DNA of 64,000 bases, taken from positions 288,001 through 352,000 of the forward strand of contig CAWJZV010000007.1 of assembly GCA_963847445.1 (NCBI GenBank), given 5' to 3'. Made by a program: the position numbers and the translations under genes. The notes beneath the pieces were generated by a model. That model had not been told where the DNA came from. It saw nothing but the letters and a program-made list of their open reading frames with translations, and made no database searches. Positions within the stretch are counted from its first letter, which is position 1; each line of letters begins with the position of its first letter. This document shows positions 62,601 through 64,000 of the stretch, piece by piece. Source of the stretch: an uncultured delta proteobacterium (GTDB lineage: Bacteria; Desulfobacterota; Binatia; UBA9968).

Positions 62601-64000
62601 TTGAGTGACGAACAAAAAGATCTGAACGAGAAGATCAGATGGCTACTCCTGCTACGGGTAGTCATCCTTAGTGTCTTTCTCGGGGCGACGGCGCTCTTTC
62701 ATTTTTTCCAAGCGGAGTCGGACATTGGTTATCTTGTCAATCTCTCCGTACCTTTAATTCTTGCCTACGCGATCTCGATCGCTTCGGCGCTGTTCTTGCC
62801 GCGGTTGAATCATCTGCGCGCATTCGCTCATGCCCAGGTCACTTTCGACGTTTTTCTAGTCACAGGGATTATTTGGATCACCGGAGATAGCGCTAGCCCC
62901 TTTTCGTTTCTCTACAATCTAGCCGTTATCAACGCGGCCATTTTATTGTTCTACCAGGGCGCGTTTATTGCCGCGGGAAGTTCAAGCGTATGTTATGCGG
63001 CTCTGCTCTTTTGGACGCAACATTGGTGGCAGAATGGCAGTGGTGCAGCACTATCTTGGCCATTGCTGGTTACCACGGTTATCAATATTGGCAGTTTCTT
63101 CGTTATCGCCGGACTGAGCGGATTTCTTGCCGACAAGCTTGGTGAAACTCAGAAGCTGTTGAAAGAAAAACAAATTGACTTTCAGGAGCTCGATGCGTTC
63201 AAAGACGCGCTCTTGCAGGGAATTGGCAGCGGTGTTGCCATTACCGATAGTCGAGGTCGTATTAACTATTTTAATCAGCAAGCGCAGAGTTTGATTTCTC
63301 TTGGTGAAGCGGCTGTGATGGGCAAGCGGCTCGATCAAATCATCCTCGGCTTACGATATGATTTTCAACGCGGTGATCGTAACGGTGCCGTGTATATAGA
63401 AGACCTTCCGTTACCCGGGTTACAGGGAAGCCAAAAACAAGTCCGTCTGACGCTCGCTCCGCTCAGCGATTCCAACCAACAGCTGCTCGGATATGTAGCC
63501 ATTTTCGAGGATGTCACAAAGCAGAAACAGACCGAAGAAAAAGTTCGCATCGAGGAAGAACTGCGCAGATCGCGGGAAATCCAATTATCGGCATCTTCTA
63601 AGGGAGTCGACACGGTGCCTTTTCGCTTCGAAGGAGTCGTCGGTAAAAGCGGCGGCATCGAAAAAATATACCAACTCATTCAAAAGGTTGCGGTGGGCAG
63701 CACCAATGTCTTGATCTCCGGTGAAAGTGGCACTGGAAAAGAACTGGTGGCTAGGGCGATTCATTTAAACGGACCGCGGCAAGGTAAGCCCTTTGTCGCC
63801 GTCAACTGCGGCGCCATCCCAGAAACTTTGATTGAGAGCGAATTGTTCGGTCACGTACGCGGGGCTTTTACCGGCGCCGTGGCGGATCACAATGGGTTAT
63901 TTAAACAAGCGGATCAGGGAACCGTATTTCTCGATGAAGTGGGTGAATTGCCGCTGCACCTCCAAGTCAAACTATTACGCGTGCTGCAAGAGAAAAGCTT
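62601..64000 (+). CDS. PilS-type membrane sensor + PAS fused to a PilR-type sigma54 AAA+ domain (3' end outside window)
   Basis: Stop-free frame from TTG 62601 to the window end: about 6 TM with [17 protein letters not shown] ([18 protein letters not shown]...IFEDVT), then [40 protein letters not shown]. Confidence 0.9.

Follow-up and report, generated by a model that had tools for sequence, protein, structure and literature searches.

The locus and its genes

PilS and PilR form the textbook circuit that matches pilin supply to pilus use. Here we describe a gene that joins a PilS-like membrane sensor to a PilR-like sigma-54 activator in one polypeptide (the fusion). It lies at the 3′ end of a 64,000-nucleotide stretch of DNA from an uncultured bacterium of the Binatia (GenBank assembly GCA_963847445.1, contig CAWJZV010000007.1). 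This whole stretch is referred to as the window (G000:C7:288001-352000, G000 being the label of the source genome). In the window the fusion is preceded by recO, a gene for pyruvate phosphate dikinase, pilB and pilC, in this order; beyond the window lie pilA, then a gene for a YfhO-like membrane protein and an IS21-type transposase. Positions beyond the window are given on L009, which is contig C7 minus 346000, and L009 plus 58000 gives the window-equivalent position. The features on which the analysis rests are as follows.

59463..61241, plus strand: pilB, type IV pilus extension ATPase (Pfam T2SSE, E 2.7e-142; MshEN)
61284..62549, plus strand: pilC, platform protein (Pfam T2SSF, E 1.4e-67, two stretches); ends 51 nt before the fusion gene
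62601..64000, plus strand: fusion gene, in-window part, residues 1-466 of 683
62607..63158, plus strand: PilS-like six-helix membrane domain, residues 3-186 (PF25323)
63201..63527, plus strand: PAS domain, residues 201-309 (Pfam; modelled fold 211-304)
63516..63644, plus strand: PAS-AAA+ junction, modelled as helix 306-323 and then a low-confidence spacer 325-348 (BLAST limits and AlphaFold2)
63639..64000, plus strand: sigma-54 AAA+ domain, in-window part (domain 347-512; PF00158, Foldseek)
63720..63743, plus strand: Walker A GESGTGKE, residues 374-381 (seven of eight residues invariant in 22/22 fusions; E375 in at least 90%)
63861..63878, plus strand: GAFTGA sigma-54 contact loop, residues 421-426 (G421, T424, G425 and A426 invariant in 22/22; F423 in at least 90%)
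63927..63941, plus strand: Walker B FLDEV, residues 443-447 (F443, D445 and E446 invariant in 22/22 fusions)
L009:6152-6379: AAA_lid_14 of the fusion (Pfam)
L009:6473-6595: HTH_8 of the fusion (Pfam)
L009:6650-6652: TAA stop of the fusion gene
L009:6652-6664: palindrome ACAAAATTTGTCA, candidate enhancer, beginning at the last base of the fusion stop codon
L009:6845-6860: predicted sigma-54 promoter TGGCCCTGCAATTGCG (TGGC-N7-TTGC)
L009:7002-7390: pilA, prepilin MKKLRLQSESG/FTLIELL... (N_methyl, E 3e-08)

Reading frame and domain order

Frame 1 is free of stop codons from 62601 to 64000, a run of 466 codons, as the original prediction had read it. That prediction also held that the gene is missing from the list of open reading frames (ORFs) because it leaves the window; it does leave the window, but the list carries it as a 3′-open ORF starting at TTG 62601. 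This TTG has an in-frame TGA eight codons upstream and a GAGG 11-14 nt ahead of it. On the contig the frame continues for 652 bases past the window end to a TAA, giving a gene at L009:4601-6652 and a protein of 683 aa.

Pfam assigns to the full-length protein, in order, 6TM_PilS, PAS, Sigma54_activat, AAA_lid_14 and HTH_8, the last a helix-turn-helix (HTH) family. The 6TM_PilS family (PF25323) covers residues 3-186 (E 1.6e-16 with the full protein, 8e-17 with the in-window part) and includes the 24-residue stretch, at residues 82-105, that had first been taken as PilS-like. PAS_4, PAS and PAS_9 match residues 201-309 (E 4e-08 to 1e-07), and the FEDVT named earlier as the end of the PAS domain stands at residues 302-306 (63504-63518). 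Sigma54_activat (PF00158) covers residues 347-512 with an E of 5.5e-72, its in-window match (347-465) ending at the window edge; AAA_lid_14 follows at 518-593 and HTH_8 at 625-665 (E 7e-11). The AAA+ domain directly after the PAS linker is intact, as proposed, with GESGTGKE, GAFTGA and FLDEV all present. By BLAST, PilS homology runs from residue 3 to about 321-332 and firm PilR homology from 341 to 667. The direct link from PAS to ATPase thus stands, its length corrected from about 35 to about 37 residues.

The absence of an H-box, a HATPase and a receiver (REC) domain, also part of the original prediction, holds for the whole protein: HisKA, HATPase_c and Response_reg (PF00072) have no Pfam match in the fusion, even at E ≤ 1 on the in-window part. 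Since the receiver domain and its phospho-acceptor Asp are missing, the fusion is not a response regulator. Its input and output domains lie in one polypeptide without phosphotransfer domains, the layout of a one-component regulator. The best NCBIfam alignment spanning PAS and AAA+ is to PrdR, far under the cut-off of that family. A GAAGGAG is kept at residues 344-346, but the junction has no in-frame start codon after it that could serve as an internal translation start.

The fusion is a genuine gene under selection

Three lines of evidence bear on whether the unusual architecture is real. First, all of the 120 listed homologues, which come from many assemblies and have 72-98% identity and lengths of 679-720 aa, carry PF25323, PAS, PF00158, PF25601 and PF02954, and receiver or kinase families appear in none of their domain lists. 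Second, the junction is crossed by independent contigs, which answers the concern that it might be misassembled. A soil-run contig of 5,696 nt spans L009:4601-6672 without a gap, at 58 differences, and the junction is partly covered by contigs from a biofilter run (5422-5578, 5549-5783) and from an estuary run (5320-5581). These contigs are assemblies of related strains from three other studies, not raw reads. Third, the ratio of non-synonymous to synonymous substitution rates (omega), computed by the Nei-Gojobori method against three relatives (three further pairs are saturated at synonymous sites), is 0.08-0.12 for the whole gene. By domain, omega is 0.08-0.12 in the transmembrane (TM) part, 0.07-0.18 in PAS, 0.045-0.065 in AAA+ and 0.065-0.12 in the HTH; only the 35-codon junction shows relaxed constraint (0.3-1.1). 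Because the architecture is shared, the junction is independently assembled and the gene is under purifying selection, misassembly and decay are excluded.

Two side observations belong here. The DNA encoding helix 306-323 (window 63531-63600) hardly differs between the four closest relatives, with a synonymous divergence (dS) of 0.08-0.29 against 0.33-1.08 for the gene; with only 35 codons, rich in Glu and Lys, this may be noise or codon preference. In one relative, G023, the fusion is found as a 127-aa membrane piece (ORF 2834-3217 of L039, G023:C6) followed by a 527-aa PAS-AAA+-HTH piece (3220-4803), a split that could be a frameshift, a sequencing error or a genuine fission.

The sensor half is PilS-like

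With residues 1-345 as query, a search of 1.84 billion cluster representatives returned 10,255 hits at E ≤ 0.001. The best 150 of these are mostly proteins of 530-620 aa aligned over the whole sensor, kinases at E 1e-25 to 1e-36. One of them, P0145, was scanned with Pfam and reads 6TM_PilS-PAS-HisKA-HATPase_c. HisKA and HATPase_c are thus present in this kinase relative, as they are in the kinases of loci with split systems (found with a histidine kinase probe), and not in the fusion. Nine full-length hits of 637-775 aa have a sigma-54 activator C-terminus, and all nine have the fusion architecture. The N-terminal region had been expected to align to PilS sensor domains, and it does so over both TM and PAS.

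The kinship extends to single residues. We compared 16 fusions with 35 kinases, nine from the loci and the remainder every fourth of 103 kinase-length hits. Five polar residues of the membrane part, R19, Q79, D83, G95 and S99, are identical in 35/35 PilS-type kinases, and T94 is present in 34/35; all six are retained in 14-16 of the 16 fusions. In the PAS domain, G211, N225, D304 and T306 are common to kinases and fusions.

The output half is PilR-like

The AAA+ part is 54-61% identical to PilRs from elsewhere in the phylum whose genes lie next to a PilS kinase gene, while the 20 other sigma-54 activator ORFs of G000 are at most 47.5% identical to the output half of the fusion. We built a quick maximum likelihood tree of 46 rows: 20 fusions, 10 PilRs, 2 regulators from a sister family and 14 G000 paralogues, the other 6 of the 20 paralogues being omitted since they align over fewer than 300 residues. 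In this tree 19 of the 20 fusions and all 10 PilRs form a clade with a Shimodaira-Hasegawa-like approximate likelihood ratio (SH-aLRT) value of 95, and all 14 G000 paralogues fall outside it. Sequence comparison thus supports orthology of the output half with PilR. Automatic database names of the homologues are 'sigma-54 interaction domain-containing protein' or 'response regulator PilR' (JGI).

The kinase-regulator pair of the sister family (f3) with the best match to the output half was considered as a PilSR pair and set aside: its kinase has an sCache domain, it does not lie near pilBC, and its regulator groups with the G000 paralogue C17:45368. Genome G321, from the same family as G000, encodes, besides a fusion, a 523-aa ORF (G321:C149:18598-19236) that is 49% identical to residues 206-420 (PAS and AAA+) without the membrane part and may be a soluble paralogue.

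Predicted structure

An AlphaFold2 model of the fusion, built from a 22-row alignment, has a mean predicted local distance difference test score (pLDDT) of 78.1 and a predicted template modelling score (pTM) of 0.40. The membrane part is modelled as helices 3-36, 42-68, 72-94, 100-143 and 153-207. The original prediction had placed a coiled linker between the membrane helices and PAS; a linker is there, but it is modelled as a single continuous helix (153-207) that leads out of the sixth TM segment into the PAS fold (211-304). After PAS the model has a helix (306-323), a spacer (325-348) with pLDDT below 50 and then the AAA+ domain; a second low-confidence spacer (594-619) is predicted between the AAA+ part and the HTH.

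Foldseek against the PDB matched only sigma-54 activators (ZraR 1OJL, NtrC1 1NY5, FleQ, LuxO, FlrC), and the membrane part found no match there. A complex prediction for the TM domain (residues 1-200, 22 rows) with mature pilin (8 rows) scored 0.02 against a mark of 0.32, a result that weighs neither way.

The pilA gene, its promoter and the palindrome

Extending the contig, as had been suggested, revealed the HTH, pilA and a conserved -24/-12 promoter. The intergenic region between fusion and pilA was aligned for nine loci of the genus group, with fusions that share 66-100% identity with the query; L016, which would be the tenth, stops short of pilA. The TGGC-N7-TTGC element, about 140 nt upstream of the pilA ATG, is invariant in all nine despite diverged flanks. 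Some 190 nt ahead of the promoter, the same loci carry the palindrome ACAAAnTTTGT(C/T)A in nearly invariant form. A palindrome-like TGACAAAnnTTGTCA also stands after the distant fusion of G056, with a sigma-54-like site 160 nt downstream, and after the canonical pilR of G165, a placement compatible with PilR-type DNA specificity. PilR sites of Pseudomonas aeruginosa contain TGTC.

A pilin gene follows the fusion in all nine genus loci that reach that far and, by motif, in 4 of 7 other fusion loci. The mature pilin N-terminus from F1 to Y27 is invariant in 8/8 neighbouring pilins, and G000 encodes one rpoN. The motor and HTH are intact and the DNA sites conserved, so activation of pilA together with sigma-54 is likely.

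Further members of the regulon were sought in G000: 3 of 18 loose palindromes (ACAAA-N1-3-TTTGT) have a TGGC-N7-TTGC within 450 nt, one of them at pilA. The other two palindrome and promoter pairs, at C4:3323 and C34:191977, were rejected for want of a credible gene downstream. The pilA leader also holds a AAGGAGGTG-like block at L009:6902-6910 (window-equivalent 64902-64910), about 100 nt upstream of the pilA start. It is kept, with G/A variation, in 9/9 aligned leaders and is distinct from the ribosome-binding site beside the ATG. The 5′ leader has no Rfam match (best E 0.77, to a microRNA family), and its folding is not unusual (z 0.20).

The fusion replaces the pilS-pilR pair

The fusion occupies the slot of the kinase-regulator pair. 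In all seven further fusion loci pilB-pilC stands directly before it, so the same architecture after pilC, which had been looked for in relatives, does recur. Split systems have the order pilC-pilS-pilR in 9 of 10 loci, the tenth ending at a contig edge. G000, at 91.8% completeness, has no 6TM_PilS match besides the fusion, and a canonical PilS query found no other match to its membrane part. In the five other fusion genomes (90-100% complete) the fusion is likewise the only 6TM_PilS match above the cut-off. With no second such match in any of the six fusion genomes, the fusion replaces the pilS-pilR pair and is not an addition to it; the notion that relatives might all carry separate pilS and pilR genes is therefore put aside.

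Downstream of pilA, two overlapping ORFs of 485 and 312 aa (L009:7500-9879, window-equivalent 65500-67879) encode a polytopic membrane protein that resembles the end of YfhO in its C-terminal part (E 6e-11). They may be one frameshifted gene, and from its position the product could be a pilin-modifying glycosyltransferase. In L012, too, pilA is followed by an ORF. The IS21-type transposase, with an rve domain (L009:10311-11909), lies 0.4 kb beyond the YfhO-like ORFs, and another sigma-54 activator gene, of 452 aa, is found at the contig end (C7:362112-363470).

Distribution and origin

Among 31 relatives, 19 genomes belong to the genus group, and 10 of these have a full-length fusion match, a count that takes in G000 and the unpublished G005, on which nothing else here depends. 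A second family of the order has matches in 3 of 5 genomes, one as two ORFs and one ended by a contig edge, and a third family in 0 of 7. Five fusion-less genomes of the order have no 6TM_PilS domain at all, and two of them also lack a PilC match with this query.

For the wider phylum, as grouped by the search tool, we used an even draw of 301 genomes, with 150 matches listed and 1,345 beyond. Among the matches listed, at least 6 of the 301 genomes have a fusion-type match, and about 100 of the 150 matches, each from a different genome by hand count, are of the kinase type, often with the adjacent PilR listed too. With the G056 fusion as query, 61 of 120 listed proteins combine PF25323 and PF00158 without a receiver (hand count), one of them labelled Bdellovibrionales; the other listed matches are mostly PilRs bearing a receiver, 48-63% identical over the aligned part, mainly the C-terminal half. 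The nearest clusters in a protein atlas are a Binatota cluster and a 677-aa Bdellovibrionota cluster, which serve as leads only. Source labels of the fusions are Candidatus Binatia, Deltaproteobacteria bacterium and Bdellovibrionales bacterium. A scan for cultured carriers yielded none: P0308, whose contig is 5.5 Mb long, belongs to a further uncultured Binatia genome assembled from a metagenome (MAG), and the other 69 loci of the scan match the AAA+ part only.

Trees and synteny back the descent of both halves, and with it the original idea that a PilS-PilR relay has collapsed into one protein. The simplest route would be one in-frame deletion between adjacent pilS and pilR. Five fusions (G056, G066, G050, P0143 and P0170) group with split systems and not with the Binatia-type fusions in both trees, which were made with a quick method. 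In the sensor tree a branch with SH-aLRT 99 parts 11 fusions from the 35 kinases together with these five; the output tree has a clade of 14 fusions at 96 and places the five among PilRs at 84-88. This pattern hints at more than one fusion event. A single clade of 19 fusions is not rejected by the approximately unbiased (AU) test (p 0.135), and the starred branches of both trees allow one transition.

Proposed mechanism and its alternatives

We propose, with a probability of roughly 0.7, that the fusion is an integral inner-membrane sigma-54 activator of the PilR type, run by the PilS sensor half and acting on pilA without phosphoryl transfer. It would probably turn on pilin production from the membrane with no phosphate relay, and presumably under the control of no other modification. 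To set out this model, we divide it into three steps. First: PilS having lost its kinase core and PilR its receiver, the six membrane helices and the cytoplasmic PAS would serve as the regulatory module. Second: judged by the conserved sites and intact motifs, the protein would bind the enhancer just beyond its own stop codon, and its use of ATP would open the sigma-54 promoter of the adjacent pilA. Third: the membrane/PAS module would set this activity, its most likely input, by homology to PilS, being the pool of pilin in the inner membrane. Pilin represses in P. aeruginosa, and the direction we suggest follows from this: pilin bound in the membrane would block formation of the active AAA+ ring, and a drained pool would release it. 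That the sensor module holds the AAA+ part off until the signal changes is an analogy with NtrC1/DctD and with N-terminally repressed one-component activators. The fusion would act while inserted in the membrane, and the two flexible spacers could supply the reach.

Several observations weigh against this proposal. The 325-348 spacer has a pLDDT below 50, evolves fast and varies in length among fusions, so that no rigid path from PAS to ATPase is visible. One fusion, P0139, is placed outside the PilR clade of the output tree. The 18 loose palindromes of G000 compare with about 7.5 expected, and only the copy at pilA is convincing. RNA support consists of one identical 175-nt contig on pilA from an estuary metatranscriptome, of the same study as one of the sources of the DNA contigs, and DNA carry-over is possible; among the public runs aligned to the fusion gene no RNA contig covers it. 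Nine of the 19 genus-group genomes, some of them incomplete, have no full-length match, and all fusion carriers found are uncultured MAGs. The other three of the five genomes with neither fusion nor 6TM_PilS, from the sister family, read pilB-pilC-pilA with the regulator slot empty; pili are thus not dependent on the fusion everywhere. Lastly, the pilin pool is suggested as input by homology, and PF25323 is common to PilS and RegB and also occurs in GrtK, a reported ammonia sensor (PMC12918730).

In one locus of the sister family, L040 (G022:C1:1370500-1381500), pilB, pilC and a pilin gene are present with no regulator gene between pilC and pilin.

The alternative that survives best keeps the protein and its pilA target and changes the input, which could be quinone/redox state, ammonia, pH or a small ligand, or makes the membrane part a mere anchor or localisation device. 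The spread of PF25323 to RegB and GrtK speaks for it, as does the homology basis of the pilin contact, and the omega of 0.07-0.18 indicates that PAS is probably doing something. What makes this alternative unlikely, though still a serious competitor, is that the whole sensor, TM and PAS together, aligns to kinases encoded after pilC beside PilR, that the polar membrane residues invariant in those kinases are retained, and that the gene sits between pilC and a pilA whose product has the same F1-Y27 in 8/8 neighbours.

In a second alternative the membrane form is an inactive store, from which a protease cut in the 325-348 spacer frees a soluble AAA+-HTH activator, in the manner of regulated intramembrane or juxtamembrane proteolysis. 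Such a cut would fall in a stretch modelled as disordered and the least constrained of the protein, and a hexameric ring is more readily imagined when free of the membrane. We nonetheless regard release by proteolysis as improbable, given that the spacer varies in length and sequence and has no conserved cleavage-like motif, that the locus has no protease gene and that irreversible release is a poor match to a homeostatic pilin circuit. An artefact, whether a misassembled pilS/pilR chimera or a dead remnant, might be suspected from the unusual architecture and the two-ORF gene of G023, and has a negligible chance in view of the 120 homologues with the full architecture, the independent contigs across the junction, the omega of 0.08-0.12 and the conserved catalytic motifs.

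Returning to the proposal of a pilin-responsive activator in the membrane, we advance one extension of it tentatively, with the odds somewhat against it. The fusion may represent a new wiring of sigma-54 control, in which a membrane-embedded AAA+ motor converts pilin occupancy of the six-helix domain into ring assembly on the enhancer, a layout perhaps of repeated origin through pilS-pilR deletion. Were this so, the enhancer abutting the fusion's own gene would mean that the locus is held at the membrane while the protein is inserted there.

Comparison with known systems

The loss of the whole phosphorelay with both ends kept suggests that the sensor module is able to drive the AAA+ output when phosphorylation plays no part. 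As a simpler system with a single gene, the fusion also lends itself to studies of signal perception by the PilS membrane domain. It poses physical questions as to ring formation by protomers tethered to the membrane and the way in which promoter DNA gets there. Uncultured Binatia, bacteria frequent in soils and sediments, have many members of the family, which is also met under other MAG labels. Neither a PilS-PilR fusion nor a sigma-54 activator embedded in the membrane is described in the article texts searched, and as far as the literature searched goes, a polytopic membrane protein acting as sigma-54 activator would be an undescribed case.

The closest relative is PilS-PilR itself, both in P. 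aeruginosa and in the pilC-pilS-pilR-pilA arrangement of the Geobacter and Myxococcus type. In P. aeruginosa, PilS has six TM segments and interacts directly with PilA for autoregulation, and PilR works with sigma-54 at the pilA promoter (PMC6058289). The fusion shares with this system the six-helix sensor with the same polar residues, the PAS domain, the PilR-clade sigma-54 AAA+ domain with a Fis HTH, the slot after pilC and a sigma-54 pilA promoter as target. It differs in being one polypeptide without H-box/DHp (dimerisation and histidine phosphotransfer), ATP-binding domain, receiver or phospho-acceptor Asp. The activator itself is therefore an integral membrane protein, and no balance of kinase and phosphatase can be used.

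DmpR/XylR, NifA, TyrR, PrdR and the PAS-containing enhancer-binding proteins (EBPs) of Desulfovibrio resemble the fusion in joining a sensor directly to AAA+ with no phosphorelay. All of these are soluble proteins, cytoplasmic as far as is known; the fusion, by contrast, has a six-helix membrane domain ahead of PAS. Desulfovibrio vulgaris has 15 one-component EBPs, 6 of them with PAS domains (PMC4641369).

NtrC1, whose PDB entry 1NY5 is described as an 'inactive state' and is among the Foldseek matches of the fusion, and DctD suggest how the ATPase might be restrained: as in these cases, an N-terminal dimeric module and a helix before AAA+ could hold it inactive. Here, in contrast, the module is TM-PAS and not a receiver, and the link after helix 306-323 is modelled as flexible, with no continuous coiled coil.

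ToxR, TcpP and CadC are membrane-spanning, one-polypeptide DNA binders, single-pass proteins with an N-terminal winged helix that act at sigma-70 promoters. The fusion has in common with them that transcription is controlled from the membrane by one polypeptide. It differs in being six-pass, in carrying a C-terminal Fis HTH and in relying on an AAA+ motor that needs oligomerisation and contact with the sigma-54 polymerase. The fusion would work like PilS-PilR, yet it is neither PilS, having no kinase core, nor PilR, having no receiver.

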